Made by a program: the position numbers and the translations under genes. A DNA stretch of 64,000 nt, from the NCBI GenBank assembly GCA_964408735.1, contig CAYPAX010000007.1, forward strand, positions 1,450-65,449, written 5' to 3'. Position 1 is the first letter of the stretch. Every line of letters starts with the position of its first letter. Shown in pieces: positions 1,682 through 62,010 of the stretch. The DNA comes from an uncultured Rhodospirillaceae bacterium. Its GTDB lineage: Bacteria; Pseudomonadota; Alphaproteobacteria; UBA7887. The notes beneath the pieces were generated by a model. That model made no database searches. It was not told where the DNA came from and saw only the letters and a list, made by a program, of their open reading frames with translations.

Positions 1682-2133
1682 CCAAAGCATCAACCAGACG
1701 GGGCTTCATGATCGGTGCAGGGGCAGCCATCGTCACGCTGCGCGCCCTGCCTGTCCAAGCGACGCCGGAGAGCATGAAGGCCGCCATCAATGCGGCCTTC
1801 GGCGATGCCGCCATCCAAGAAGGAAAAGTCACCGTTACCCTGCCGCCGATCAGCGAGAACGGGAACTCGGTCGGTCTGACGGTCGAAGTCGATTGCGCCA
1901 TGACCGAGGCGGATCATGTGCGTTCGATCCATGTGTTCTCGGAGCAGAACCCGCTGCCTGACGTGGCACGCTACCATCTCAATGCGAGGTCGGGCCGGGC
2001 ACGGCTGACGACGCGAATTCGCCTCGCCGACTCCCAAGCCATCGTCGCCGTCGCGACCATGAGCGACGGCACGCTCTGGTCGGGCTCGGCCAAGAGCATC
2101 GTTGCGCTCTCGGCCTGCGTTGATCTGATATGA
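1678..2133 (+). CDS. soxY: SoxY-family sulfur carrier protein with a non-canonical C-terminus
   Basis: Twin-arginine signal (TRRGFMIGAGAA). The core aligns with SoxY (ADHV...NPxPxV...RIRLA..Q.IVAVA.MSDG). GTGA overlap with soxX. The C-terminus is ...ALSACVDLI rather than the usual GGCGG swinging arm. Confidence 0.7.
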   Translation: MTKASTRRGFMIGAGAAIVTLRALPVQATPESMKAAINAAFGDAAIQEGKVTVTLPPISENGNSVGLTVEVDCAMTEADHVRSIHVFSEQNPLPDVARYHLNARSGRARLTTRIRLADSQAIVAVATMSDGTLWSGSAKSIVALSACVDLI

Positions 2134-2143
2134 GGCAGGAGCA

Positions 2144-2464
2144 ATGACCAAGATCCGCCTTGCCGTGCCGGAGACCGCCAAAGCGGGCGAGGTCATCGAG
2201 ATCAAGACCCTGATCGCCCATCCGATGGAAACGGGGTTTCGTCGCGACGCTGTCGGCAAGGCAATCCCGCGCGACATCATCACCGATTTCGCTTGCCTCT
2301 ATAACGGCGAAGAGGTCTTCCGCGCCGCTTTCCAGCCGGCAGTGGCGGCCAATCCGTATCTGACGTTCTTCACCACAGCGATGGACAGCGGTGAGTTGGT
2401 GTTTGTCTGGACAGATCAGCACGGCAACACCTATACCGACACCGCCTCGATCACGGTCGAATGA
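2144..2464 (+). CDS. soxZ: Thiosulfate oxidation carrier complex protein SoxZ
   Basis: 106 aa of SoxZ-like sequence with an AGGAG RBS 6 nt upstream. It follows soxY. Confidence 0.75.
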   Translation: MTKIRLAVPETAKAGEVIEIKTLIAHPMETGFRRDAVGKAIPRDIITDFACLYNGEEVFRAAFQPAVAANPYLTFFTTAMDSGELVFVWTDQHGNTYTDTASITVE

Positions 2465-3222
2465 ACGCCGTCCGCTCCGTAATTTTCGCAGCTTTCCTCT
2501 GGGCAAGCGCCGCCGCAGCGGACGAATTGCTGTCCGGCTATGCCTTTCAGTCTCCGGATACGCAGGCGCTGCAGGACGATCCCTTTGCCAACCCCGGAAT
2601 GCTTTGGGTCGACGCCGGCAGGGATCTCTGGCAATACGCCGACGGCACCGCCGAAAAGGCATGTGCCGCATGCCATGGACCGGATGGCAATGAGATGGCA
2701 GGCGTCGCAGCACGCTATCCGGCTTATGACCGACAGGAACGACATCTGGTCAATCTGGAGCAGCGGATCAACCTGTGCCGCAGCCGCCATCAGGATGCGT
2801 CCCCGCTACCCTACGAATCGGAAGACCTGCTGTCGCTGACCGCTTTCGTTGCCCATCAATCGAATAGCATGTCCATCGATGTGAGCGTCGCTGGCGAGGC
2901 GCGGCCGTTTTTCGAGGCGGGCCGGGCCTACTACACGCAGCGACGGGGGCAGCTCAATCTCGCCTGCCGCCACTGTCATGAGGACAATGCGGGCAAGATG
3001 CTGCGCGGCGATCGCCTGAGCCAAGGCCACGCAAACGGCTACCCGACATATAGGCTGGAATGGCAGACGCTCGGGTCATTGCATCGCAGGCTGCGTTTTT
3101 GCGACCGCGGCGTCCGCGCGGAGCCGCATGCCTTCGGTTCCTCCGAATATGTCAATCTCGAGCTGTTCCTGGCTTGGCGCGCGACTGGATTGAGAATCGA
3201 ATCCCCGGCTGTCCGCCGCTAG
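2461..3222 (+). CDS. soxA: Dihaem cytochrome c SoxA
   Basis: 253 aa with a signal peptide and two haem motifs, CAACH and CRHCH. ATGA overlap with soxZ. Confidence 0.75.
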   Translation: MNAVRSVIFAAFLWASAAAADELLSGYAFQSPDTQALQDDPFANPGMLWVDAGRDLWQYADGTAEKACAACHGPDGNEMAGVAARYPAYDRQERHLVNLEQRINLCRSRHQDASPLPYESEDLLSLTAFVAHQSNSMSIDVSVAGEARPFFEAGRAYYTQRRGQLNLACRHCHEDNAGKMLRGDRLSQGHANGYPTYRLEWQTLGSLHRRLRFCDRGVRAEPHAFGSSEYVNLELFLAWRATGLRIESPAVRR

Positions 3223-3259
3223 AGCGCTTCATCATATAATCTCTCTGATGGATGAGGCG

Positions 3260-4066
3260 TCACGTCGGGAGACCGTCGACGAAATCGAGCATGGCCTGGG
3301 CGGCGGCGGTGCCGTGGCTCAGGACCACGCCGTGGCGGGCATTGGCGCAGAGGAGCAGCTTCGCCCCGGGCACCCGCGAATGGGTCTCGGCTAGGGTCGG
3401 CGGCGACAGGAAGGGGCTCGAATCGCCGGCGATCATCAGCGTCGGCACGCTGATGCGGCCGAGCTCGTCCGACAAATCGACATCGGCCAGCATGTCGCCC
3501 TGGCCGAGCACCACGCTCGCGTCGCAGGCCGATTGGCAGGCGTGGAACCAGTCCCATTCGGCTTGGGCAATGCCGTTCGCGAAGAAGCGCCGGTCCATCA
3601 TGGTCTCGGACCAGGCGGACATGCCGTCGCCCTCGATCTGCTCGCGCCAGGTACCGAGGCCCGAGACGGCGATGCCCTTATGCGGCGCGGTGCAGGAAAT
3701 CAGGCTGAGGAGGGACTCACCGTGATGAATGGCGAGGTAATAGCCAAGCGCACCGCCCATCGATTCGCCTACGTAATGAAAGCGCACGGCGCCCGCCGCC
3801 TCGGCCACCGCCAGGGCATCGGCGGCCAGGCCCGGTATCGACCAGTCGTAACCCATGCCGGCCTCCGCCGAGCGGCCATAGCCGCGCACGTCGAAGCGCA
3901 CCAGGCGAAAGCGCCGCGACAGGATCGGCCACCATTTGCACCAGATACGATGGTCGATGCCGACGCCGTGGTGGAACAGCACCGTCTCGGGCGCGCGCTC
4001 CCACGGCGGCGTGAGGTCGATGATGTCGTACCAGATATTGCCGTGGGCGGTTTGCAGCGTGGCCAT
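3260..4066 (-). CDS. Alpha/beta-fold hydrolase
   Basis: GESMGG nucleophile elbow and HHGVG oxyanion region. Start chosen at MATLQTAHG (ATG 4066..4064); the ORF's upstream extension looks spurious. Confidence 0.7.
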   Translation of the reverse strand: MATLQTAHGNIWYDIIDLTPPWERAPETVLFHHGVGIDHRIWCKWWPILSRRFRLVRFDVRGYGRSAEAGMGYDWSIPGLAADALAVAEAAGAVRFHYVGESMGGALGYYLAIHHGESLLSLISCTAPHKGIAVSGLGTWREQIEGDGMSAWSETMMDRRFFANGIAQAEWDWFHACQSACDASVVLGQGDMLADVDLSDELGRISVPTLMIAGDSSPFLSPPTLAETHSRVPGAKLLLCANARHGVVLSHGTAAAQAMLDFVDGLPT

Positions 4067-4173
4067 GCCATGTCTCTCCCTGAAAGCTGTCGGCGGAATT
4101 TGGTATAGGCGGAAGTGGCGTCCTTTGGCGAGCCCGCTATGATGGCGCTCCCCGCAACCCTGCCCGGACCGCC

Positions 4174-4848
4174 ATGCCCAGCTCGCCACGCCCCAAAGAT
4201 GCCGCCACGCTCATATTGCTGCGCCACAGCCACGGCGCGGCCGAGGTGTTGCTTGGACAGCGCCATGCTCGGCACGCCTTCATGCCCAACCGCTACGTCT
4301 TTCCCGGCGGCCGGGTCGATGCCTATGACCACCGGGTGCGGGTGGCGAGCGAGCTTCGCCCCGAGGTCCGCGACCGTCTCGAGCGTGCGGCCACGTCGGC
4401 CCGCGCCCATGCGCTGGCGGTGGCGGCGGTTCGCGAAACCTGGGAGGAGACCGGCCTGCTCCTGGCGCAACCGTTGCCTTACGGTATGCGCCCCACCACG
4501 CGGGCGCCTTGGGATGCGTTCAGCGAGCGCGGCCTGGCGCCGGCGTTGGATTGCCTGGACTATATCTATCGCGCGGTGACTCCACCGGGGCGACCGCGGC
4601 GTTTCAATGCGCGCTTCTTCCTGGCCGATGCGGCCAATGCCACGGGCGAGCTGGGCGGCGATGGCGAGCTGCTGGACCTACGCTGGGTGCCGCTTGACGA
4701 TGCGCTTTCGTTGCCGATTCCCCAGGTCACGCACCTGGTACTCGAGGAAGTGCGGCGCATCATGGAGACGCGCCCGGACATGCCCAAACACCGGCCGCTG
4801 CCGCGCTTTCAGACCGTCAACGGCCGCTTCGTCTTCGACCACGAATAG
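4174..4848 (+). CDS. NUDIX hydrolase
   Basis: Nudix box GGRVD...RETWEETG. Confidence 0.7.
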   Translation: MPSSPRPKDAATLILLRHSHGAAEVLLGQRHARHAFMPNRYVFPGGRVDAYDHRVRVASELRPEVRDRLERAATSARAHALAVAAVRETWEETGLLLAQPLPYGMRPTTRAPWDAFSERGLAPALDCLDYIYRAVTPPGRPRRFNARFFLADAANATGELGGDGELLDLRWVPLDDALSLPIPQVTHLVLEEVRRIMETRPDMPKHRPLPRFQTVNGRFVFDHE

Positions 4849-4851
4849 GCG

Positions 4852-5316
4852 CTATTCGTCCTCGATCCGCTCGACCTTGAGCACGGTGCCGTCGACGTCG
4901 ACGACCTTGACCTCGGTACCGACCGGCATGTCCTCGCCCGCCACCAGCCACAGGCTGTCGCCGACCCGCGCCCGGCCACGGCCGTTGCTGATGGGCTCAG
5001 CCAGAGTGTAGACACGGCCGATATGCTGGTCGCCGCGGCGGTTGAGGTCGGGCCTGTCCGTCTCGACCTGTCCCGGGCGCCAGAATTTGCGCCCGACATA
5101 GATGCTGGCGATCGAGAGTGCCGAGAACACCAGCAGTTGATAGCGCCAGTCGAACTCCGGCAAGGCCAGCAGCAGCAGGCCTGTGACGCCGGCCGAGACG
5201 CCGAGCCAGAGGAACAGGGTTCCCGGCAGCAGCACCTCGAGAATGATGAAGGCGACACCGGCGATCCACCAATGCCAGTATTGGACTTCGGTAAAGAAGG
5301 CAGGATCCATTTCCAT
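4852..5316 (-). CDS. NfeD-family membrane protein
   Basis: Two N-terminal TM helices and a C-terminal OB-like domain. It lies immediately downstream of an SPFH gene, the usual pairing. Confidence 0.7.
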   Translation of the reverse strand: MEMDPAFFTEVQYWHWWIAGVAFIILEVLLPGTLFLWLGVSAGVTGLLLLALPEFDWRYQLLVFSALSIASIYVGRKFWRPGQVETDRPDLNRRGDQHIGRVYTLAEPISNGRGRARVGDSLWLVAGEDMPVGTEVKVVDVDGTVLKVERIEDE

Positions 5317-5319
5317 GGC

Positions 5320-6273
5320 TCAGGCGTCCCGGTTCCAGGGGCCGTCGCCGCCACGCGCGACGCCGGCCTGTTTGGCCAGCTCGGCAACACCGGCCACGGC
5401 GCCGATCACGCCGGAGGCCTCGAGCGGCATCAGCACCACCTTCTCGTTGTCGGCGCTGGCGATCCCCTGCAAGGCCTCGATATAGCGCTGGGCGATGAAA
5501 TAGTTGATCGCCTGCACGTCGCCGGCGGCGATCGCCTCGGAGACCACTGTCGTCGCCTTGGCTTCGGCTTCGGCCGCGCGCTCGCGCGCCTCGGCCTCGC
5601 GGAAGGCGGCCTCGCGCTTGCCCTCGGCATCGAGCACCACGGCTGCCTTGGCGCCTTCGGCACGCAGGATTTGCGATTGCCGCTCACCCTCGGCCTCGAG
5701 GATCAAGGCCCGGCGCTCGCGCTCGGCCTTCATCTGCCGGGCCATGGAATCGACGAGGTCGCGCGGCGGCGAGATGTCCTTGATCTCGATGCGGGTGATC
5801 TTGACGCCCCAGGGATTGGTGGCCTCGTCGACCACGGTCAGGATGCGGCTGTTGATCTGCTCGCGCTGGGACAGCAGCTCGTCCAGATCCATCGAGCCCA
5901 TCACCGTTCTCAGATTGGTCATGGTCAGGTTGATCGTGGCCAGTTCGAGATTGTTGACCTCGTAGGCCGCCTTCGGCGCGTCGAGAATCTGGAAGAAGAC
6001 GACGCCGTCGACCGTCACCATGGCGTTGTCCTTGGTGATGATCTCCTGGCTCGGCACGTCGAGCACCTGCTCCATCATGTTGAGCTTGGCGCCGATGCCG
6101 TCGACGATCGGCACGATAAGGTTGAGGCCAGGCCGCAGGGTCTTGGTGTAGCGCCCGAAACGCTCGACCGTGTATTCGCGGCCCTGGGGGACGGACTTGA
6201 CCCCCATGAAAACCAGAATAACTGCCAGAACCAGGACCACGAGGACGAAAATCGTCAAGCCGGTGGGTTCCAT
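5320..6273 (-). CDS. SPFH/band-7 (stomatin-like) protein
   Basis: N-terminal TM helix, SPFH domain, Ala/Glu-rich coiled-coil tail. Start placed at MEPTGLTIF. Confidence 0.75.
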
Positions 6274-6981: not shown

Positions 6982-6993
6982 CGGCGCACACAG

Positions 6994-7159
6994 ACGGTGA
7001 CAGTTACCTATTATTTCGGTATTTATCGTTTATTTTCAAAATATTGCGGAGACTTTGGCCTGAGCCTGTTGTGGCAAGGATCGACCGAGCTCGATCGAAA
7101 GACTCGTAACACATTGATATCAACCGAAAAGATTCTGAGTAATAGGTAACTGTCACCGT
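6994..7159. mobile_element. MITE-like element: perfect 20-bp terminal inverted repeats (ACGGTGACAGTTACCTATTA) around a 126-bp AT-rich core
   Basis: IR-L 6994-7013 and IR-R 7140-7159 are exact reverse complements. The core is about 40% GC in a roughly 68% GC background. The element lies between two convergent gene ends. Confidence 0.5.
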
Positions 7160-7162
7160 TTG

Positions 7163-8335
7163 TTAGGCGGTTTCGTCGAACAGTTCGCGGCCGATCAGCA
7201 TGCGCCGGATCTCGCTGGTGCCGGCGCCGATCTCGTAGAGCTTGGCGTCGCGCAGCAGCCGCCCGGTCGGGCTTTCGCTGATATAGCCGGTGCCACCCAG
7301 GGCCTGGATCGCCTCCAGCGCCATCCAGGTCGCCTTTTCCGCCGCATAGAGGATGACGCCAGCGGAATCCTTGCGCGTGGTCTCGCCGCGGTCGCAGGCC
7401 TTGGCGACAGAATAGGCGTAGGCCTTGCAGGCGTTCATGGTGGTGTACATGTCGGCGAGCTTGCCCTGCATGAGCTGGAAAGTGCCGATGGGCCGGCCGA
7501 ACTGCTCGCGCTGGTGCACATAGGGCACGACGATATCCATGCAGGCCTGCATGATGCCGAGCGGCCCGCCGGCCAGCACCGTGCGCTCGTGGTCGAGGCC
7601 GCTCATCAGCACCGCGACGCCGCCGCCGACCTCGCCGAGCACGTTCTCTTCCGGCACTTCGCAGTCCTCGAACACCAGCTCGCAGGTGTTGGAGCCGCGC
7701 ATGCCGAGCTTGTCGAGCTTCTGGGCGGTGGAAAACCCGGCGAAATCCTTCTCGATGAGGAACGCCGTGATGCCGCGGCTGCCGGCCTCCGGGTCGGTCT
7801 TGGCATAGACCACGAGGGTATCGGCGTTGGGCCCGTTGGTGATCCACATCTTGTTGCCGTTGAGGATGTAGCGCTCGCCACGTTTCTCGGCGCGCAGCTT
7901 CATGCCGACGACATCGGACCCGGCGCCGGGCTCGCTCATGGCCAGGGCGCCGACATGCTCGCCCGAGATCAGCTTCGGCAGGTAGCGCGCCTTTTGTTCG
8001 GGCGTGGCGTTGCGGTTGATCTGGTTGACGCAGAGATTGGCGTGGGCGCCGTAGGACAGCCCGACCGAGGCCGAGCCGCGGCTGATCTCCTCGATCGCCA
8101 CCACCTGCTCGATATAGCCCATGCCGGCGCCGCCATAGGCCTCGTCGGCGGTGATGCCGAGCAGTCCGAGATCGCCGAGCTTGCGCCAGAGGTCGCCGGG
8201 GAAATCGTTGCTCTCGTCGATGGCCTCGGCCCGCGGCGCGATCTCGTCGGCGGTGAAATTGGTCACCGACTCCCGCAACATGTCCACGGTCTCGCCGAGA
8301 TCGAAGTCGAGGGTCGGGTAGCGGTTGGGAATCAT
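7163..8335 (-). CDS. ivd: Isovaleryl-CoA dehydrogenase (acyl-CoA dehydrogenase family)
   Basis: 390 aa from [15 protein letters not shown], with strong ACAD motifs and an IVD-like sequence. The ORF's N-terminal extension is treated as spurious. Confidence 0.8.
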
Positions 8336-32360: not shown

Positions 32361-32628
32361 CTAGTGGTCCAAATCTGACATATGGTACCCATAGGATCGC
32401 CTCTGACGCCGCCTCGCTAGAAAGGTGCGCGCCGGTGATGCCAGCCCATCGGCAAGCGCGCCTGACGACGCGAGGCGGCGTCAGAGGCGACCTATGGGCG
32501 GCCGTCCGCGCCCACCGGCGTCGTTGCGCGGTCCTTGCGATGGACCCGCATCGCGGCGCACCGCGCGCCTAACCGGTGGGCGCGGACGACCGTCCTATGG
32601 GTACCATATGTCAGATTTGGACCACTAG
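32361..32628. mobile_element. MITE-like element: perfect 36-bp terminal inverted repeats with nested internal hairpins
   Basis: IR-L 32361-32396 (CTAGTGGTCCAAATCTGACATATGGTACCCATAGGA) is the exact reverse complement of IR-R 32593-32628. Nested IRs of 19 bp (32398-32416 / 32468-32486) and 16 bp lie inside. IR-R abuts the stop codon of the cyclase gene. Confidence 0.55.
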
Positions 32629-35787: not shown

Positions 35788-37589
35788 TATTCGGTCTGCT
35801 CAGGGATATTAAGGCCGGCTTTGCGCAGGCCGTCAATCCACGCCTTGTATCGGGGCCGTAGCGCTTCGGGGTTCAGCGGGGAAAGCGCCGCCAAGGCCAC
35901 CTCAGGGGTGAAGTCCGGTTTAACTTCTAACAGCCCTTTGAGCGCAATCTTGGCTTCTGCGGGTTTACCAAGGTGTGCCAACGCCGATGCCAAATGCGCG
36001 TGAGGCCAAAATGGGGTTGCTGGGAATCGGACCGCGCGCCGCGCATCCTCCACTGTCGATTCGTAGTCTCCTAATAAAAAATGAGCAAGAGCGCGTAAGG
36101 TATAGAATGCCCATGCAAATGGGTCGCGCGGGCTTAAGCGGATGGCGGTGCTATACTCGGCGATGGCATCGTCATAACGCTCACTTCGCGCAAGCGCCAT
36201 GCCGAGCCCATTATGCGCAAATGCCGAGCTGGGATTAAGGTCAATGGCCGTACGTAGCTCTGCGATCGCCGCATCGTATTCGCCTCGTGAGACGTGCACC
36301 CTACCAAGCGCGAGATGAGCCATTGCGTCTTTGTCGTCCAGCGCCACGGCCCTGTTCGCGAACCGCTGTGCATCGTCCACATCCTCAAGAGGTGTATCTG
36401 AGTAGGCGTGCAGAACCTGGAGGAACAGCGTGAACCCAAGCGCCGCGAATGCTTGGGCAAAATTCGGATCTTGGTCGCTGGCAAGTTGGAAAAATCGACG
36501 CGCCTCCGCCATGTCCTCGGCATTGATTTGCCAAAGATGCCACATACCGCGCTGGTAGCACTCCCACGCATCGAGATTTTCCGGCCGCTTGCGACGGGCG
36601 CGTTCGCTTTCGAATTCGCCGACTTCCACTTGCAGGGCTGCGACCAGAGTTTCAGTGATCTCGTCCTGCAACGCGAAGATATCCGACAGGTCGCGGTCGT
36701 ATCGCTCAGCCCATATATGGTTGCCTGTGAGAGCATCGATCAATTGCGCCGTGATGCGCACCCGTTCGCCACCTCTACGGACGCTGCCCTCGACAACGTA
36801 TCGAACCTTGAGGTCATGGCCGACCTGTTTCACATCGACAGCTGTGTTCTTGTAGGTGAAGGAAGAATTGCGGGCCGAAACCTGGAGCCAGCGCAGGCGC
36901 GACAGCTCTGTGATCAGGTCTTCCGCTATGCCATCGGCAAAGTACTCTTGGTCGGCATCGCCGCTTAGGTTATTAAACGCTAACACAGCTATTGATGGCT
37001 TCTCAGCTAGCGACTGTGCAGCGTTCGGCGCAGGCGACATATCACGCGTGTTCAAAATGATCTGATAGGCACGCACCGAGCGGGCAATGTTCTTGAACTC
37101 GTGTTCACCCACATCGGCGAACGCAATATTCAGGCGCCCACTCACAGCACCGTGTATCATGTCCGATACGGTGATCCCGCCCGGCTCGCTCAGGCCTTCC
37201 AGCCGGGCCGCGACATTTACGCCATCGCCATAAACCGTCCCGTCGGCCTTCTCGTGGATGTCGCCAAGGTGGATGCCAATACGGAAGTGCATCTGGCGGG
37301 CCTCGGGAACATCCGCATTGAGCGCCGCCAAGCCTTCCTGGATCGCCAGAGAAGCCCGCAACGCCCCATTCGTGGTCTCGAAGACGGCCAGCACGCTGTC
37401 GCCCGCCGTGTCCACCACCCGGCCGTGGTTGCCCTCGACGTGTTTCGTGAAGACCGCCCGCGCGCGGTCCAGCGCCGCGATGGTCCCCTTCTCGTCGTCG
37501 GCCATCAGCCGCGAATAGCCGACCGCATCCGCCGCCAGGATCGCCGCGACGCGCTCGGTTATGCCGTCCTGTCCGTCGTCCTCAGCCAC
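35787..37589 (-). CDS. Class III adenylate/guanylate cyclase (CHD) with TPR repeats, paralogue of the downstream gene
   Basis: The same CHD motifs plus a single LAFNNLSGD module and TPRs. Its stop overlaps the next gene's start by 1 nt (TAATG). Confidence 0.8.
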   Translation of the reverse strand: MAEDDGQDGITERVAAILAADAVGYSRLMADDEKGTIAALDRARAVFTKHVEGNHGRVVDTAGDSVLAVFETTNGALRASLAIQEGLAALNADVPEARQMHFRIGIHLGDIHEKADGTVYGDGVNVAARLEGLSEPGGITVSDMIHGAVSGRLNIAFADVGEHEFKNIARSVRAYQIILNTRDMSPAPNAAQSLAEKPSIAVLAFNNLSGDADQEYFADGIAEDLITELSRLRWLQVSARNSSFTYKNTAVDVKQVGHDLKVRYVVEGSVRRGGERVRITAQLIDALTGNHIWAERYDRDLSDIFALQDEITETLVAALQVEVGEFESERARRKRPENLDAWECYQRGMWHLWQINAEDMAEARRFFQLASDQDPNFAQAFAALGFTLFLQVLHAYSDTPLEDVDDAQRFANRAVALDDKDAMAHLALGRVHVSRGEYDAAIAELRTAIDLNPSSAFAHNGLGMALARSERYDDAIAEYSTAIRLSPRDPFAWAFYTLRALAHFLLGDYESTVEDARRAVRFPATPFWPHAHLASALAHLGKPAEAKIALKGLLEVKPDFTPEVALAALSPLNPEALRPRYKAWIDGLRKAGLNIPEQTE

Positions 37590-37716
37590 GCCTCGTCCCT
37601 TCCCATGGCGCCTGAAGCCTTAGGCGCGAATGGTACGGCTTGCTCGGGCCTTGCGCAATGCAACCGCGCGGGCCGCGCCATGGCATGGCGGTGTCAGGGA
37701 AGCCGCGCCGCAATAC

Positions 37717-37765
37717 CCGCCCCCGGCGCCCGGGCGGAGTTCGCCGTTCGGCGGGCCGCCGGGGA
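37717..37765 (+). repeat. GC-rich ~45-bp hairpin-forming repeat, copy 1
   Basis: It reads CCCCCGGCGCCCGGGCGGAGTTCGCCGTTCGGCGGGCCGCCGGGG. Copy 2 at 38315-38360 differs at 2-3 positions, and the differences preserve the inner stem (GGCGGA/TTCGCC versus GGCGAA/TTCGCC). Confidence 0.55.
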
Positions 37766-37838
37766 GTGGGAGGCAAGTTATTCGTTGCAGCAATATCGCA
37801 TTCTACGATGGTCATGCAATGAGTTGCACCACCATTGC

Positions 37839-38085
37839 GATGCTAAAATGAAAGACTTGACCCCCAAGACCTGGGAGGTGCGGATTGCACCCGCGTTGCG
37901 TTGCGTTGGCGCAAACCGTACCATCGCCGGGCGCCAGGAAATCCGGGGTCAAGTCTTTCATTTCAGGAAATCCGGGGTCAAGTCTTTCATTTTAGCATTT
38001 GCTCGAGACTGGCAGTGGCACGCTCTCGCCGCCTGATAACGAAACGCCTGCGGGAGATGCTAAAATGAAAGACTTGACCCCAAAT
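37839..38085. repeat. Four copies of a ~24-bp motif (GATGCTAAAATGAAAGACTTGACCCC) in forward, reverse, reverse, forward order; the middle pair is a 29-bp tandem duplication
   Basis: Forward copies at 37839-37865 and 38057-38082. Reverse-complement copies at 37938-37966 and 37967-37997. Confidence 0.6.
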
Positions 38086-38314
38086 TTTCAGGTGCCGGCG
38101 GCGGCGATATCGGGGGCCGCAGGAAGCGCCATGGTCCGATGGTGAGCGGGTGACATATCGGCCACGGGAGTCAAGGGCCTGCGGTCCGCTTCGCGGATGG
38201 CCTACGGGGCCACCCTTGACTCCCCTGGCCGATATGCAAAATGGCAACCATCGGACCATGGCGCGGGCCGCGCATTGGGTGGCAGCGTCGCGGAAGTCGC
38301 GCCCCAACGAACGC

Positions 38315-38360
38315 CCCCGGCGCCCGGGCGAATTTCGCCGTTCGGCGGGCCGCCGGGGTC
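38315..38360 (+). promoter_or_regulatory. GC-rich hairpin repeat, copy 2, ending 19 nt upstream of the cobA start; a candidate 5'-UTR regulatory structure
   Basis: Same sequence family as 37717-37765. Its position suggests an RBS-proximal regulatory hairpin. Confidence 0.35.
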
Positions 38361-38378
38361 TGCTATAAGACGCCGGTG

Positions 38379-39191
38379 ATGGTGGACTTTCCTTTCGATA
38401 TGCCGCGCCTGGAGGCGGGCTGGGTGTGGCTGGTGGGCACCGGGCCGGGGGATCCGGGCCTGCTCACCCTGCATGCCTGGAACGCCATGCAACAGGCGGA
38501 CGTGGTGGTCTATGACGCGCTGGTCGGCGATCAGGTGATGGCCATGATCGGGCCCGGAGCCGAGGTCGAGTTCGCCGGCAAGCGCGGCGGCAAGCCCTCG
38601 GCGCGGCAGCCGGATATCTCGCGCCGGCTCGTGGAACTCGCCAAGGCGGGCAAGCGCGTGGTGCGGCTGAAGGGCGGCGATCCTTTCGTTTTCGGGCGTG
38701 GCGGCGAGGAAGCCCTGGCGCTGGTCGCGGCGGGCGTGCCGTTCCGTGTCGTGCCGGGTATCTCGGCGGGCATCGGCGCCTTGGCCTATGCGGGCATTCC
38801 GCTCACCCACCGCAGCACCAATGCGGCGGTCACCTTCGTCACCGGCCACGCGGCGGACGGGGAGGTGCCGGGGGCGCTGGACTGGGATGCCATCGCCCGC
38901 GGCTCGCCGGTCATCGTGCTCTACATGGCCATGGGCCATCTCGCCGCCATTGCCGCGCGCCTGCAGGCGGGCGGCCGTGCGGCGGACGAGCCGGTGGCAG
39001 TGATCTCGGCGGCGACCACCCCGGCCCAGGTGGTGCTGGAGACCACGCTGGGGGCCTGTGCGGCGGAGGCCGAGGCCGCCGCTGTCGGGCCGCCGGCGAT
39101 CGTCGTGGTCGGCGATGTGGTGCGGCTGCGCGCGGGCCTCGACTGGCTGGGGGCGGCTGCCGGCAAGACGCTTAACGCCGAGCCGCTGTGA
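38379..39191 (+). CDS. cobA: Uroporphyrinogen-III C-methyltransferase
   Basis: Methylase motifs GTGPGDPGLLT and GGDPFVFGRGGEE. 270 aa. Confidence 0.85.
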   Translation: MVDFPFDMPRLEAGWVWLVGTGPGDPGLLTLHAWNAMQQADVVVYDALVGDQVMAMIGPGAEVEFAGKRGGKPSARQPDISRRLVELAKAGKRVVRLKGGDPFVFGRGGEEALALVAAGVPFRVVPGISAGIGALAYAGIPLTHRSTNAAVTFVTGHAADGEVPGALDWDAIARGSPVIVLYMAMGHLAAIAARLQAGGRAADEPVAVISAATTPAQVVLETTLGACAAEAEAAAVGPPAIVVVGDVVRLRAGLDWLGAAAGKTLNAEPL

Positions 39192-40486
39192 GCGCGCCGG
39201 CGCTGATCCTGGCCGCGCCCGCGTCCGCCAGCGGCAAGACCACGCTGACCCTGGCGCTGCTGAGGGCGTTTCGAAACCGTGGTGTGCGGGTGGCCTCCTT
39301 CAAGGTCGGGCCGGACTATATCGATCCCGCCTTCCATGCCGCGGCATCCGGGCACCCCTGCCCCAATCTCGACACCTGGGCCATGCGCCCCGGCACCGTC
39401 GCGGCCATCGTTAGCGAGCTATGTGCCGATGCGGAGCTGGTCATCGGCGAGGGCGTCATGGGCCTCTTCGACGGTGCCGCCGGCGGCGGCGGCTCGACCG
39501 CCGACGTCGCCGCCGCGCTGGGTCTGCCGGCGGTGCTGGTGCACGATGTCAAGGGCCAGTGGGCGAGCGCCGCCGCCGTCGTCGAGGGCTTCGCCAACCA
39601 TCGCGCCGACGTGGCCGTGGCCGGGGTGATCTTCAACTATGTCGGCAGCCCCCGCCACGCCGCCCTGCTGGAGAAGGCTTGCGCCGATGTCGCGCCGGCC
39701 CGCCTCGGTGCCGTGCCCCGCGACGATCGTCTGGCTCTGCCCGACCGCCATCTCGGCCTGGTGCAGGCGGGCGAGCATGCGGGCCTCGAAGACTTTCTCG
39801 ACGGTGCCGCCGCGCTTGTCGCCGCCCATGTCGACCTCGACCGCCTCGCCGCTCTCGCCCGGGTTCCGACCGCCAGCGCCGAGGCCTGCCCGCCGCTGCC
39901 GCCGCTCGGCCAGCGCATTGCCATCGCCAACGATACCGCCTTCGCTTTTGCCTACCGTCACCTATGCCTAACCTTGCACGACCAGGGGGCCGAGCTGTTG
40001 CCGTTTTCGCCCCTTGCAGATGAGCCGCCGGGCGACGCGGACGCCATCTATCTGCCAGGCGGCTACCCGGAATTGCACGCCGGGCGCCTGGCCGCCAACG
40101 CCCGCTTCCTAGACGGCCTAAGGGCAGCCGCCGCCGGCGGCGTCACGGTCTATGGCGAATGCGGCGGCTATATGGTTCTAGGCGATGGGCTCATCGATGG
40201 CGACAGCGCGCGCCACGCCATGGCCGGGCTGTTGCCGCTCGAGACGTCGTTCGCGAAACCGCGCCTGCATCTCGGCTATCGCCAGCTGGCGCTGGCGGCC
40301 GATACGCCGCTGGGGGCCAAGGGCGCCCGCTTTCGCGCCCACGAGTTCCACTATGCGGAGGGCATGCCCGGCAGGGCGGCGGCCCTATTCGAGGCCAGCG
40401 ATTCCGAAGGCCGGCCGCTGGGACCCGCGGGACTGTGCGCGGGCTCGGTGATGGGCTCGTTCATGCACCTCGTCGACGCAGCGTGA
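39188..40486 (+). CDS. cobB: Cobyrinate a,c-diamide synthase
   Basis: The N-terminal ATP-binding motif SGKT and a C-terminal glutamine amidotransferase domain are colinear with CobB/CbiA. GTG start with a 4-nt overlap onto cobA. Confidence 0.8.
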   Translation: MSAPALILAAPASASGKTTLTLALLRAFRNRGVRVASFKVGPDYIDPAFHAAASGHPCPNLDTWAMRPGTVAAIVSELCADAELVIGEGVMGLFDGAAGGGGSTADVAAALGLPAVLVHDVKGQWASAAAVVEGFANHRADVAVAGVIFNYVGSPRHAALLEKACADVAPARLGAVPRDDRLALPDRHLGLVQAGEHAGLEDFLDGAAALVAAHVDLDRLAALARVPTASAEACPPLPPLGQRIAIANDTAFAFAYRHLCLTLHDQGAELLPFSPLADEPPGDADAIYLPGGYPELHAGRLAANARFLDGLRAAAAGGVTVYGECGGYMVLGDGLIDGDSARHAMAGLLPLETSFAKPRLHLGYRQLALAADTPLGAKGARFRAHEFHYAEGMPGRAAALFEASDSEGRPLGPAGLCAGSVMGSFMHLVDAA

Positions 40487-40622
40487 GCGTGCGCAGCGCC
40501 AGACCGCCGGCGAGCAGCAACAGAATCGCGGCCAGCAGACCGGGCTGGGCTTCGTGGCCGGGATGGGCGAAAGCGGTGCCCGGCACGAGGGCGAGCACGA
40601 AGGTCAGGGCAAGGTTACGCAT
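40461..40622 (-). CDS. Small hypothetical membrane/periplasmic protein (53 aa): signal peptide, HPGHE, then a TM anchor
   Basis: ORF MRNLALTFVLALVPGTAFAHPGHEAQPGLLAAILLLLAGGLALRTL... lies immediately downstream of cbtA and overlaps the cobB 3' end by 26 nt. Confidence 0.3.
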   Translation of the reverse strand: MRNLALTFVLALVPGTAFAHPGHEAQPGLLAAILLLLAGGLALRTLTLRRRGA

Positions 40623-40639
40623 CGTCGATAGTCCTTTCG

Positions 40640-41320
40640 TCAGGCGGGATGGCTGTCGCTGTGACCCAGCCGTGCCATTGCAGTGGCGGCAAGCGCGCCA
40701 AGCGCCAGCCAGAAGACGAGATTGGCGACCATGGTCGCGCTTACGAAAGCCGCTGCCATCTCGGGCGGCACGCTGCCGGCGATGGCCGGCACCTCGGGTG
40801 CGCCGACCGCATGGGGCAGAACGATGAGCACCACGCCGATGGTCTTCAGCCAGGTCGCCGGCACCAGCAGCAGCGCCCACAGGCCGATGCCCGTGGCGAC
40901 CACCGTACCGAGCCACCAGGCCTGACGCTCGGCCAGCTCGCCACCGACCATGCCGGGCAATTCGGGCGGCATCCCGAGGGCCGGCGCAAGGGAGAACACG
41001 GCAAAGCCGGCCAGACCCCATAACGCGCCCTGGCGCCAGTCCAGCCGGCGCCCGGTCAGCGCCAGCGCAGCACTCAACAGCAAGGCGAAACCGACGCCGA
41101 CCAGCACATTGGTGCCGAGGCGCAGAACCACGCGCCCGCCTTCGCTTTCGGGGATTGCGGCAGCATCGCCATGGCCATGATCGTGGCCGTCCGCCGCCTG
41201 CACCTCATAGGTCTCGGCAGCGAGGATCAGCGGCTGCACCTTGTGCGCCTGCAGCGCCGTCAGCAAAAGGCCAGACAGCACACCGGCGATGATTGCCGAT
41301 AGGGCAATTCTCAGAAACAT
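40640..41320 (-). CDS. cbtA: Cobalt transporter subunit CbtA
   Basis: Multi-TM protein with a His-rich loop (DGHDHGHGD) and CbtA-like topology. Start placed at MFLRIALS. Confidence 0.7.
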   Translation of the reverse strand: MFLRIALSAIIAGVLSGLLLTALQAHKVQPLILAAETYEVQAADGHDHGHGDAAAIPESEGGRVVLRLGTNVLVGVGFALLLSAALALTGRRLDWRQGALWGLAGFAVFSLAPALGMPPELPGMVGGELAERQAWWLGTVVATGIGLWALLLVPATWLKTIGVVLIVLPHAVGAPEVPAIAGSVPPEMAAAFVSATMVANLVFWLALGALAATAMARLGHSDSHPA

Positions 41321-41324
41321 GCGC

Positions 41325-41513
41325 TCAGTGGCAGGGGAACGCCATGCCGTGCCGCCCGTCATGAGCGGCATTGTGCAGGACTGACGGCTGGGCGAAGCCT
41401 ACGCCATAAAGGATAAAGGCGCCAAGCAGGACCGCAGCCACGGCAGCCGCCAAAGTCCCGAGCCCTTGTTCAGCCTGGGTGCCGCTCTCGACACGTGCGC
41501 CAATTGCCGTCAT
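41325..41513 (-). CDS. cbtB: Cobalt transporter subunit CbtB
   Basis: 62 aa, one TM helix, C-terminal HNAAHDGRHGMAFPCH (the CbtB signature). Located directly upstream of cbtA. Confidence 0.65.
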   Translation of the reverse strand: MTAIGARVESGTQAEQGLGTLAAAVAAVLLGAFILYGVGFAQPSVLHNAAHDGRHGMAFPCH

Positions 41514-41587
41514 CGTCTTCTCCCTGCGCTCAAGTTTTCGGTGCCGACCATAGAGCGCGACGGCAGAGATGGGAAGGGCAAACAGGG

Positions 41588-42124
41588 ATGGCAGACCCGT
41601 TCGTAGCGCTGACCTTGGTGTTGGGCGGCGCCCGTTCCGGCAAGAGCCATTTTGCCGAGGCCCTCGTCGAATCGAGCGGGCTCGATGCGGTCTATGTCGC
41701 CACCGCACAAGCCGGCGATGAGGAGATGGCGGCGCGTATCGCCCATCATCAGGCGCGCCGGGGTGCGGTCTGGCGCACTGTGGAGGCGCCTTTGCAGTTG
41801 GCCGCCGCCCTGGCCCGCGAAGCCGCGCCCGGGCGCGCCGTGCTGGTCGACTGCCTGACGCTGTGGCTCGCCAACATCATGGCCGACGGCTGTGATGTCG
41901 AGGCTGAAGCGGAGCGCCTTGTCGCAGCGCTTGGTGAGCTCGCCGGCCCGGTGGTGCTGGTCAGCAACGAGGTCGGCCAGGGCATCGTGCCGGACAACGC
42001 CCTCGCCCGCGCCTTTCGCGACCACGCCGGGCGCCTGCACCAGGACATCGCGGCGGCAGCGGACACTGTGTACTTCGTCACCGCCGGCCTGGCGCAGACC
42101 TTGAAGAGCCCTAACCCTCGCTGA
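41588..42124 (+). CDS. cobU: Adenosylcobinamide kinase / adenosylcobinamide-phosphate guanylyltransferase
   Basis: P-loop GGARSGKS and a CobU/CobP-like sequence. 178 aa from MADPFVAL. Confidence 0.8.
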   Translation: MADPFVALTLVLGGARSGKSHFAEALVESSGLDAVYVATAQAGDEEMAARIAHHQARRGAVWRTVEAPLQLAAALAREAAPGRAVLVDCLTLWLANIMADGCDVEAEAERLVAALGELAGPVVLVSNEVGQGIVPDNALARAFRDHAGRLHQDIAAAADTVYFVTAGLAQTLKSPNPR

Positions 42125-43130
42125 CACCCGCGTCCGCGAAGGTGGCCATGCCGGCGTGGGTCGTAACCGCGGCCTTGACCAGGTGTGCGGCGAGCGCGGC
42201 GCCGGAGGCTTCGCCGAGGCGCATGCCGAGGTCGAGCAGTGGTGTCAGGCCGAGCGCCTTGAGAAGGCGGTCGTGGCCGGCTTCGGCCGAGCGATGGCTG
42301 GCCAGGCAGTGGTCGAGCGCGCCGGGCGCGGCACGCTGGAGCACGGCGGCGGCGGCGCAGCAGATGAAGCCGTCCAGCATCACCGGCACGCGGGCGCGCC
42401 GGGCGCCGAGAATGGCACCGGCGATGGCGGCAAGCTCATAGCCGCCGAGCCGCCGCAAGACCTCGAGGGGATCGCCGAGTGCCGCGCCGTGAAAGGCCAT
42501 GGCGGCGGCGATCGTCTCGCGCTTGCGGGCGAGGCCGGCATCGTCGACGCCTGTGCCGCGGCCCACCCAGTCGGCCGGCTCGCCGCCGAACAGCGCCGTC
42601 GCCAAAGCCGCTGCCGAGGTGGTGTTGGCAATGCCCATCTCGCCGAGGCAAAGCAGATCCGTCCCTGCCTCGACGCGCGCCATGCCGGTGGCGAAGGCGG
42701 CGGCGCAGGCGGCCTCGCTCATTGCCGCGTCAGCGGTGAAGTCGGCGGTCGGAGACTCGAGATCGAAGGCATCGACGCTGAGCTCGGCGCCGAGGCTACG
42801 GCAAAGCTGATTGATGGCGGCACCGCCGGCCTCGAAATTCGCCACCATCTGCACGGTCACTTCGGCGGGAAAGGCGGATACGCCGCGCGCAGCGACGCCG
42901 TGATTGCCGGCGAAGACGAGCGTGCGCAGGGCCTCGGCGCGGGCCGGGTGGCGGCCCTGCCAGGCGGCCATCCAGGCGGCGATATCCTCGAGCCTGCCAA
43001 GCGAGCCGGAGGGCTTGGTGAGTTGCGCGTCGCGGGCGCGCGCTTCCGCCGCGGCAGCGTCGTCCGCGGATGCCAAATCGCTCAGCATTTGGCGTATGGT
43101 GGCAAAATCCAAAGTAAGGGCTCCGTTCAT
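42111..43130 (-). CDS. cobT: Nicotinate-nucleotide--dimethylbenzimidazole phosphoribosyltransferase
   Basis: 339 aa CobT-like sequence (GEMGIANTTSAAAL). Confidence 0.8.
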   Translation of the reverse strand: MNGALTLDFATIRQMLSDLASADDAAAAEARARDAQLTKPSGSLGRLEDIAAWMAAWQGRHPARAEALRTLVFAGNHGVAARGVSAFPAEVTVQMVANFEAGGAAINQLCRSLGAELSVDAFDLESPTADFTADAAMSEAACAAAFATGMARVEAGTDLLCLGEMGIANTTSAAALATALFGGEPADWVGRGTGVDDAGLARKRETIAAAMAFHGAALGDPLEVLRRLGGYELAAIAGAILGARRARVPVMLDGFICCAAAAVLQRAAPGALDHCLASHRSAEAGHDRLLKALGLTPLLDLGMRLGEASGAALAAHLVKAAVTTHAGMATFADAGVSEG

Positions 43131-61271: not shown

Positions 61272-61371
61272 AGGGCAATATTAGAGCAAGTTGCGGCCAT
61301 GCGAGGTGGTCAAATGGCTCCGCATGATCCTGATTTGAAAACACCGCCGCTAACCCTGCCGGCGCCTTATA

Positions 61372-61630
61372 CCAAGGCTCAGTGATAAAGACCCATTTGA
61401 TGGCTCGAGGCGCCTTTCCGGGTAGGAGCGGCGCGCCGGGCGATGTCAGCCATCATCCCAGCGTCGCGACGCATCCGGGGAGCCGCCTCGGGCCACCGCA
61501 GGCCGCGCGCTTTTCGCCGCTGGCGTCGTCGCGGGCCGCTTGACGTGGGGAAACACGACGGCGCGACCCGCTCCTAGCCAGCGACGAAAATCGTGCGGTC
61601 AAATGGGTCTTTATCGCTGAGTCTTGGTAT
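61372..61630. mobile_element. MITE-like element with ~32-bp imperfect terminal inverted repeats and an internally palindromic GC-rich core
   Basis: IR-L at 61372-61402 (TACCAAGGCTCAGTGATAAAGACCCATTTGA) against IR-R at 61600-61630, with 2 mismatches. The 10-bp direct repeat GGTCAAATGG occurs at 61305-61314 and 61597-61606. Confidence 0.5.
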
Positions 61631-62010
61631 TACGCTCCCTCGCCGAAGCCTATCGCACCGGTCGCGCGCGTGGCACAGGCGACAGCGGCGACGGCAAGTC
61701 AGAGGGACGCGAAAGTGCCCTCGCGACATTCCGGTTTCTCTTTTCGAAAGTTCCGACGGATAGGATCGAACAGACCGTCGCTGCACTGACAAGTGAGCTT
61801 TCGGACACGGCCCCATTGTGGCTGGTGGCCGAACGACGGGACTGAGCCGACATACCTCGGATGGGTTCGAATTTTCTCACCTATGGCAGCGGAAATGGCT
61901 CCTTATCCCCATGTGTCGCCGGGCCCGGAGTCTTGGTCACGTCCCGCAAATTTCAAACCGCCCGGCAACGACTTGGTAAGGCTGGCAAAGGCTGTGCTGC
62001 GGTCTCCGTC

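Follow-up and report, generated by a model that had tools for sequence, protein, structure and literature searches.

Repeats upstream of cobA in an uncultured Rhodospirillaceae bacterium are best explained as orphan ends of a TIRtron-like mobile element

We analyzed a 64,000-nucleotide stretch of DNA from an uncultured Rhodospirillaceae bacterium (assembly GCA_964408735.1, contig CAYPAX010000007.1; the whole stretch is called the window here), and within it the repeat-dense region 37590-38378 that separates a cyclase gene from the divergently transcribed cobA. This region contains four copies of a 25-bp motif and two copies of a GC-rich 45-mer able to form a hairpin, and an initial annotation had considered for them protein-binding sites, miniature mobile elements, or a structured RNA leader of the cobalamin genes. 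The best explanation, to which we give a probability of roughly 0.78, is that the 25-bp repeats derive from a TIRYT/TIRtron element, as orphaned terminal inverted repeats (TIRs), and do not form a B12 switch or a local operator, and that the GC-rich hairpin belongs to a stretch of the cobA promoter region that was duplicated.

Three copies of the 25-mer ATGCTAAAATGAAAGACTTGACCCC are exact (A, C, and D in Table 1), and the fourth, copy B, has three mismatches, with none expected from shuffled sequences. The arrangement forward, reverse, reverse, forward that had been described at the outset is real, and so is the tandem duplicate said to hold the reverse copies at 37938-37997; it is a perfect 29-nt repeat with its units at 37935-37963 and 37964-37992. 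Copy B is a product of this duplication and not an independent site. Referring to ends with the tip GGGG on the left as left type and to those with the tip CCCC on the right as right type, the window contains one TIR dimer, one single TIR, and one tandem duplicate. A nhmmer profile of 125 distinct TIRs from other genomes matched exactly the four copies (E values from 2e-6 to 1.5e-5) and nothing else in the 64 kb, and the 25-mer, the 29-nt duplicate, the 45-mer, and the longer direct repeat to which the 45-mer belongs have no further occurrence within the window. No direct target duplication was found around 37974-38081 (flanks ...AAATCC and AAATTT...); TIRs are present there, with one-sided tandem duplications of tip plus flank instead. 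The AT-richer tract to the left of copy A is probably the interior of a decayed element. No recognizable left end was found for this tract, tblastn detecting no TIRYT remnant and the profile search no second TIR. A degenerate left TIR at 37768-37792, matched by eye as a partner of copy A (18/25, with one gap), was dropped, as the TIR profile gave it no support.

The 19-nt core of the motif, AAATGAAAGACTTGACCCC, was found exactly in 66 metagenome contigs with a GC content of 0.31 to 0.66, and at 50 loci of 31 named genomes, with one to seven exact copies per genome (a count of exact 19-mers, which under-counts diverged copies); only a handful of matches would be expected by chance. The genomes that carry it belong to Psychromonas, Vibrio, Endozoicomonas, Thauera, Nitrospirae/Thermodesulfovibrionia, SAR324, Elusimicrobia, Bacteroidales, Spirochaetaceae, and several alphaproteobacterial metagenome-assembled genomes (MAGs), Alpha- and Betaproteobacteria both being included. 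An end sequence of about 21 nt is identical across several phyla, in genomes ranging from 31% to 70% GC, and the sharing of the 25-mer among such unrelated phyla suggests horizontal spread. Neither the 25-mer region nor the 19-mer had a match in plasmids (blastn) or in viral contigs. A genome-wide count had been proposed initially to tell a dispersed repeat from a local operator, with hundreds of copies as the mark of generic debris; the numbers per genome, which come from other organisms, are nowhere near hundreds, and the choice between the two nevertheless falls on a dispersed mobile element.

In a large share of these loci, an open reading frame (ORF) of 288-300 amino acids has its stop codon within the motif, and its product ends in ...HYST(I/V)SRL...SK (...GYSQKEVADYLGLHYSTISRLVNE..SK). 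This protein matches the Pfam family Y1_Tnp (IS200-like HUH transposase, 4e-11), together with several helix-turn-helix (HTH) models at the C terminus, and scores 90.2 bits with the NCBIfam model NF047646 for tyrosine transposases associated with repetitive extragenic palindromes (REPs), for which the cut-off is 80. Complete units, 923-968 bp overall with inverted copies at both ends, were found at 10 loci of other genomes. Their layout is a left end GGGGTCAAGTCTTT..., about 45 nt, the gene, and a right end ...CAAAATGAAAGACTTGACCCC (...AAATGAAAGACTTGACCCC) that overlaps the TGA stop of the gene; some left ends in other genomes read GGGGTCAC. Miniature elements like that of the window, 36-212 bp long, were found nine times at the loci of other genomes, accompanied elsewhere by several tandem arrays and many single TIRs, so that orphan TIRs occur as singles, dimers, and groups. 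One of these miniature elements, of 66 bp, is in L094, a Rhodospirillaceae MAG with 70% GC, and its TIRs are the same as those of the window over 25-26 nt, the ATGCTA variant included. A finished plasmid of Legionella adelaidensis codes for a 46%-identical homologue (WP_131739603.1), annotated as "transposase", with the same architecture and a variant TIR, GGGTCAGGCCTTGCC. Head-to-head miniature elements, one of the two possibilities raised initially for the motif, are thus what the comparison favors: the motif is the TIR of a transposase-bearing unit in many unrelated genomes, and the window has a gene-less copy of 108 bp plus a solitary end. The 25-mer was also considered as a CRISPR repeat, an iteron, an integrase arm site, or a Tn3/Tn7-type end, all of which were dropped, the flanking gene elsewhere being a Y1 transposase.

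The layout of these units is that of the published TIRtrons, in which the gene for a TIR-associated tyrosine (HUH/Y1) transposase (TIRYT) lies between TIRs that share the sequence GGGGWSAS and whose orphan TIRs are single, dimeric, or grouped (Di Nocera, De Gregorio & Rocco 2013, PMC3733652). Most TIRYTs have been placed in subclass 2.1 of TnpA_REP, the hallmark of which is an HTH or DnaA_C-like domain at the C terminus (Quentin et al. 2018, PMC6006769). The features shared with this class are a RAYT-like (REP-associated tyrosine transposase) Y1 HUH gene with a C-terminal HTH, inverted repeats starting with GGGG, a downstream repeat overlapping the 3' end of the gene, and orphan TIRs found singly, as dimers, or in groups, in low to moderate copy number and with a patchy distribution across phyla. 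By contrast, the window has orphan ends only and no gene, its TIR start, GGGGTCAA, departs from GGGGWSAS at the last position, different phyla share an identical core of about 21 nt, and tandem duplications of tip plus flank are frequent. The array in the window would be a further case of the TIRYT/TIRtron kind, which is already known and poorly studied.

Other families of HUH-related elements fit less well. Like REPIN-RAYT systems (PMC3116915; PMC2817692), the window shows a gene-less doublet, in which the sequence found on either side of a single-copy Y1 transposase gene is present as two inverted copies. Such a doublet is able to fold into a long hairpin, and its mobilization presumably takes place in trans. 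REPs themselves are imperfect palindromes of small size that carry a GTAG (or CGTC) head; a genome has tens to hundreds of them, and their inheritance is mostly vertical (Bertels & Rainey 2011, PMC3116915; Nunvar 2010, PMC2817692). The 25-mer, by contrast, is not self-complementary, has neither head, and has a core found in one to seven exact copies in each of 31 genomes and shared by unrelated phyla. Insertion sequences of the IS200/IS605 type also have a transposase of the HUH superfamily with a single catalytic Tyr, and small gene-less derivatives of them (PATEs) are known, but IS200/IS605 ends are subterminal hairpins without TIRs, unlike the true TIRs and the extra HTH of the enzyme found here.

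The repeats lie in a segment that the closest relative, L124, does not have. In L124, L125, and L126, the relatives with the most similar CobA (92%), the sequence aligns with the window from 38110 rightward at 85%, through cobA, cobB, cbtAB, and cobU (for L124, positions 1776-5804 correspond to 38110-42155 at 85% by blastn). To the left of the break, a TPR gene on the opposite strand takes this place in L124, only 54% identical to a paralogue in the window, and no 25-mer was found in L124. The TIR-bearing tracts have a GC content of 0.46-0.51, compared to 0.664 for the window. Because synteny breaks at about 38108, L124 lacks the TIRs, and the GC content is low, the segment from 37590 to about 38107 appears to be specific to the lineage of the window and to have been rearranged or inserted.

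The GC-rich 45-mer has a different origin. Its two copies, on the same strand and 43/45 identical (none expected by chance), are as real as had been proposed, with the earlier coordinates 1-3 nt off, and the second copy ends 20 nt before the cobA ATG at 38379. The 45-mer makes up the 3' portion of a more extensive direct repeat, DR1/DR2, of 99 and 98 nt with one indel, in whose 86-nt core the first 41 nt agree at 28 positions and the last 45 nt at 43. The orthologue of copy 2 is found in L124, L125, and L126 at the same distance from cobA, and L127 (CobA 88%) has only its right half. Since both copies in the window share derived states and an insertion of about 20 nt relative to L124, DR1 was made after the split from L124. 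We favor recent duplication, gene conversion, or a later re-copying over selection as the source of the near-identity of the hairpin copies, because conservation of the hairpin between species (38/45) is no better than that of its surroundings (85% on average in the region). As a separate observation, a 14-nt inverted pair with one mismatch, ATGGTACGGCTTGC at 37630-37643 and GCAAACCGTACCAT at 37911-37924, brackets DR1 and TIR copy A; its significance is borderline, and it may have arisen by chance.

A TIRtron is a mobile unit of about 0.93-0.97 kb, with one TIRYT gene (RAYT-like, with a C-terminal HTH) between two inverted ends. In the scenario that we propose, the pieces in the window would be its non-autonomous remains, i.e., a 108-bp mini-element, a solitary right end, and a 29-nt duplication of end plus flank. 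These pieces probably arrived by transposition or rearrangement, mobilized in trans by a TIRYT whose gene lies outside the window or has been lost in the meantime. Copy 1 of the hairpin is the end of DR1, a 99-nt duplicate made in the lineage of the window and abutting the inserted DNA, and copy 2 is native.

Several observations weigh against this scenario. No orthologous empty site was found among the relatives: the genes upstream of cobA differ in those closest in CobA, and the cyclase has no close orthologue, its nearest non-identical homologue being only 69% identical. Insertion is deduced from the synteny break and the composition and was not seen directly. A tblastn search of the 64-kb window found no TIRYT gene. 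The start of the TIRs in the window fits seven of the eight positions of the published GGGGWSAS, the last being A and not S. The hairpin half of the direct repeat is far better conserved between copies than the rest (43/45 versus 28/41; Fisher p = 0.0012), a difference for which constraint could be responsible instead of conversion. Finally, we know of no experiment that shows binding or cutting of these TIRs by a TIRYT.

The largest structure of the region, overlooked in the initial annotation, is a near-perfect palindrome of 139 nt located upstream of the inferred cobA promoter. Its predicted folding energy is about -104 kcal/mol (z = -11 on either strand), and its counterpart in L124, directly downstream of the preceding gene, reaches -112 kcal/mol (z = -12.5). 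The palindrome is present in L124 and L125 and absent from L127-L129 (CobA 88% or below). Of 147 positions compared with L124, 18 differ; none of these differences breaks the long stem. Changes on both sides of the stem were found at 38134/38256 (G-C to A-T), 38164/38226 (A-T to G-C), and 38165/38225 (C.C to A-T), and two more changes give G.T wobbles. The placement of the changes is far from random, but two sequences do not amount to statistical proof. Judging from these comparisons, the palindrome appears to be a separate native element kept as a hairpin by compensatory changes, for which a selfish palindromic element, an insulator or terminator, and a protein site are candidates. No significant similarity between it and the TIRs was found. 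The possibility that its core, GGGAGTCAAGGG, is a TIR that has diverged was rejected as unsupported: the core escapes detection by the profile, and among the loci compared, it is found only here and in the orthologues.

In one alternative, the whole region would be a REP-like cluster, similar to a bacterial interspersed mosaic element (BIME), of palindromes (the GC hairpins, the 139-nt palindrome, and the TIR doublets) maintained by the host as insulator, terminator, or nucleoid-protein sites between operons, the link to a transposase being incidental. Such roles are known for REPs (PMC3733652), the compensatory changes and the position of the palindrome in L124, between a gene end and cobA, would suit them, and long palindromes are also intergenic at 32380-32611, 6990-7163, and 61361-61638. 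However, the different palindromes share no sequence and have no GTAG/CGTC tag or U-tract, the 25-mers are demonstrably transposon ends elsewhere, and the 64 kb contain only two GC hairpin copies and one big palindrome, so that we regard this alternative as unlikely.

At 32380-32611, between two genes on the same strand, there is a nested palindromic module with outer arms ATATGGTACCCATAGG and CCTATGGGTACCATAT, enclosing two hairpins, one with 21-nt arms that are 100% complementary (32397-32490) and one with 23-nt arms (32496-32595), with CCTATGG between them. A unit of about 280 bp at 61361-61638, similar to a miniature inverted-repeat transposable element, has 76-nt inverted arms (75% complementary) and the termini TACCAAGGCTCAGTGATAAAGACCCATTTGA and TCAAATGGGTCTTTATCGCTGAGTCTTGGTA. 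The third, at 6990-7163, is an AT-rich intergenic inverted repeat of 174 bp with 59-nt arms (71% complementary) and the ends GACGGTGACAGTTACCTATTA and TAATAGGTAACTGTCACCGT.

Three 100% identical copies of the 25-mer between two divergent transcription units could also be read as a local operator array that controls the promoters of the cyclase and cobA, bound by a TIRYT-derived HTH protein or by another regulator. The HTH of TIRYTs presumably recognizes the 25-mer, and there are known cases of transposon ends that were domesticated as regulatory sites. We find this very unlikely, since the same sequence is located near unrelated genes in dozens of unrelated genomes and also forms the ends of a transposase unit, none of the sites is present in the closest relative although its cobA promoter region is the same, and a distance of 300-540 bp, which includes the 139-nt palindrome, separates the sites from the cobA start; no regulator gene was found adjacent to them. 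The palindromic array of protein-binding sites that had been suggested initially is therefore not supported.

As for the GC-rich 45-mer, compensatory substitutions between its copies had been taken as a sign of selection on an RNA structure. There is no double substitution; the copies, which are recent duplicates, differ at two positions, one a one-sided change (G.U versus A-U) in one possible inner stem and the other in the loop, and according to ViennaRNA, their inner stems are slightly different and of modest stability. Copy 1 folds better than expected (z = -3.0), but for copy 2, the one adjacent to cobA, z is -1.5 and 20 of 200 shuffled sequences fold as well. The fold is not kept in the relatives. 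The 3' arm has TGCCGCTC in L124 where the window has CGCCGGGG; three or four pairs of the outer stem are thereby lost uncompensated, and the segment folds as poorly as shuffled sequences (z = +0.3). In L127, the 5' (left) arm is missing altogether (z = -0.1). The idea that the hairpin is a functional RNA of the cobA leader (a divergent riboswitch, an attenuator, or a stabilizer) duplicated once could call on the 43/45 identity with its G.U/A-U change, on the better conserved hairpin half, and on the fact that no canonical B12 riboswitch is present for the role, but against the folding data, the ordinary conservation between species, a -10-like box downstream of the hairpin, and a 45-nt stem with no ligand-pocket architecture and no Rfam similarity, we consider it highly improbable.

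Conserved in the relatives are ATTTC.CCGTTCGGC.GGC.GC and then TCTGCTATAAG/C, which lies 9 nt from the cobA ATG. A Shine-Dalgarno sequence is absent, and we infer that 38359-38378 is the core promoter of a leaderless or near-leaderless cobA. The GC hairpin is probably not transcribed with cobA, because the conserved -10-like box is downstream of it, 9 nt from the ATG; the same box, with the conserved right half, leaves no room for a riboswitch leader. A sigma-70 promoter scan of the region with a simple consensus found no full promoter and no support for outward promoters from the TTGACC of the TIRs. A possible sigma-54 site, TGGCAC at 38018, was discarded by eye for lack of a correctly spaced TTGC. 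No intrinsic terminator was recognized: there is no T-run after the GC hairpin in either copy, whichever strand is read, and a scan gave one weak site inside the start of cobA, within chance. An exact 40-mer of the GC hairpin had no match in 185,579 species genomes, a collection that does not include the source species.

The absence of a B12 box or canonical riboswitch from the region, noted at the outset, was upheld by the Rfam scans. No family of Rfam 15 reached the gathering score in the whole 64-kb window, the cobalamin-family models (RF00174/RF01482/RF01689) gave no hit in the whole window at E <= 1, and at E <= 10, the region 37500-38500 showed nothing relevant, only generic-hairpin matches to microRNA models that we dismissed. 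Like a cobalamin riboswitch (RF00174 and variants), the region lies upstream of cobalamin-biosynthesis genes, but it gave no covariance match at any of the thresholds used, lacks a B12 box, and apparently has no leader that could contain a riboswitch. A divergent riboswitch or other structured leader, as had been proposed in its place, is disfavored by the negative covariance scans, the unconserved hairpin fold, and the apparent lack of a leader. The window contains cobA, cobB, cbtAB, cobU, and cobT-like genes, yet no cobalamin riboswitch was detected in it; B12 control in this lineage, if any, must work differently.

A feature of the TIRs that deserves attention is the tandem duplication of their tips. 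In other genomes, 28 of 129 distinct TIR ends (22%) have one to three extra tandem copies of the tip GACCCC together with 7-12 nt of the adjoining flank, and same-strand tandem periods of 21-44 nt were seen in at least 10 loci. Examples among the loci L008-L123 and L131 are L094:4733-4898, L090:2100-2260, L070:200-420, L066:6459-6541, and L131:262-300. The finished Legionella plasmid has such a duplication too (cactctggaGGGTC twice), and therefore it is not an assembly artifact. Duplication of tip plus flank is a trait of this TIR family, and the consulted parts of PMC3733652 and PMC6006769 contain no description either of it or of the identity of about 21 nt across phyla. A tentative and rather doubtful idea is that the tandem duplications are a footprint of TIRYT activity, by repeated cleavage and rejoining or by template switching at the GACCCC tip, and that DR1 came from the same process with a native GGGGTC as pseudo-end. 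The last bases of DR1 are exactly GGGG, whereas its parent DR2 runs on to give GGGGTC, the sequence of the TIR tip, which is why we speculate that the end-processing that makes these stutters may have produced DR1. If so, such elements would actively remodel promoter regions, and the locus would be a sequence-level handle on the mechanism of an uncharacterized class of transposases.

For cobalamin biology, the result is mostly negative: the cob cluster has no B12 riboswitch, the repeats are not its regulator, and no regulation should be annotated into them. For the study of mobile elements, the region would be a clean example of the almost unstudied TIRYT/TIRtron class, gene-less miniature derivatives included, and the recurrent stutter duplication at the ends may mark where and how the enzyme cuts. 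What remains of interest is the identity of the ends across phyla, the duplications of tip plus flank, and, small but real, a compensated 139-nt palindrome beside a B12 gene.

Table 1. Features of the cyclase-cobA intergenic region and its flanks (window coordinates)
Feature	Position	Strand	Remarks
TIR copy A	37840..37864	+	Solitary right end, tip ...GACCCC at 37864; exact; nhmmer E = 2.8e-6
TIR copy B	37945..37969	-	Left end, 3 mismatches; within the 29-nt tandem duplication
TIR copy C	37974..37998	-	Left end of the 108-bp miniature element; exact
TIR copy D	38057..38081	+	Right end of the 108-bp miniature element; exact
29-nt tandem duplication, perfect	37935..37992	-	Unit of 19 nt TIR + 10 nt outer flank; contains copy B
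Miniature TIRtron, 108 bp	37974..38081	+	Copies C and D, 58-nt spacer, tips outward, gene-less
AT-richer tract	37765..37839	+	Left of copy A; GC 0.46 (copy A included)
DR1	37666..37764	+	Duplicate of the cobA-proximal segment; GC hairpin copy 1 at 37720-37764; left of the synteny break
DR2	38261..38358	+	Native; GC hairpin copy 2 at 38314-38358; orthologous sequence in L124/L125/L126
Synteny limit, left	38108..38110		Versus closest relative L124 (CobA 92%)
Near-perfect palindrome, 139 nt	38126..38264		52-nt arms; native; L124:1792-1930
TCTGCTATAAGACGCCGGTG	38359..38378	+	-10-like TATAAG (38364-38369), conserved in L124 and L127; 9 nt before ATG
Adenylate/guanylate cyclase-TPR gene, 600 aa	35787..37589	-	Divergent; first gene of leftward operon
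cobA (uroporphyrinogen-III C-methyltransferase)	38379..39191	+	PF00590, 7.6e-48; cobB next

The flanking genes are as stated in the initial annotation, with the cyclase-TPR gene on the minus strand having its 5' side at 37589 and cobA starting at 38379. The locus belongs to a marine alphaproteobacterium, and its sequence recurs in at least 24 metagenome contigs (the samples with this population include ERZ23498963 and JGI 3300007765); of six contigs checked, five had an identical intergenic region. In the gap between cobB and cbtA, there is an ORF of 53 amino acids on the minus strand (approximately 40461-40622; L001:5083-5244), which has no Pfam match and is kept in L124 and L125, relatives at 92%.

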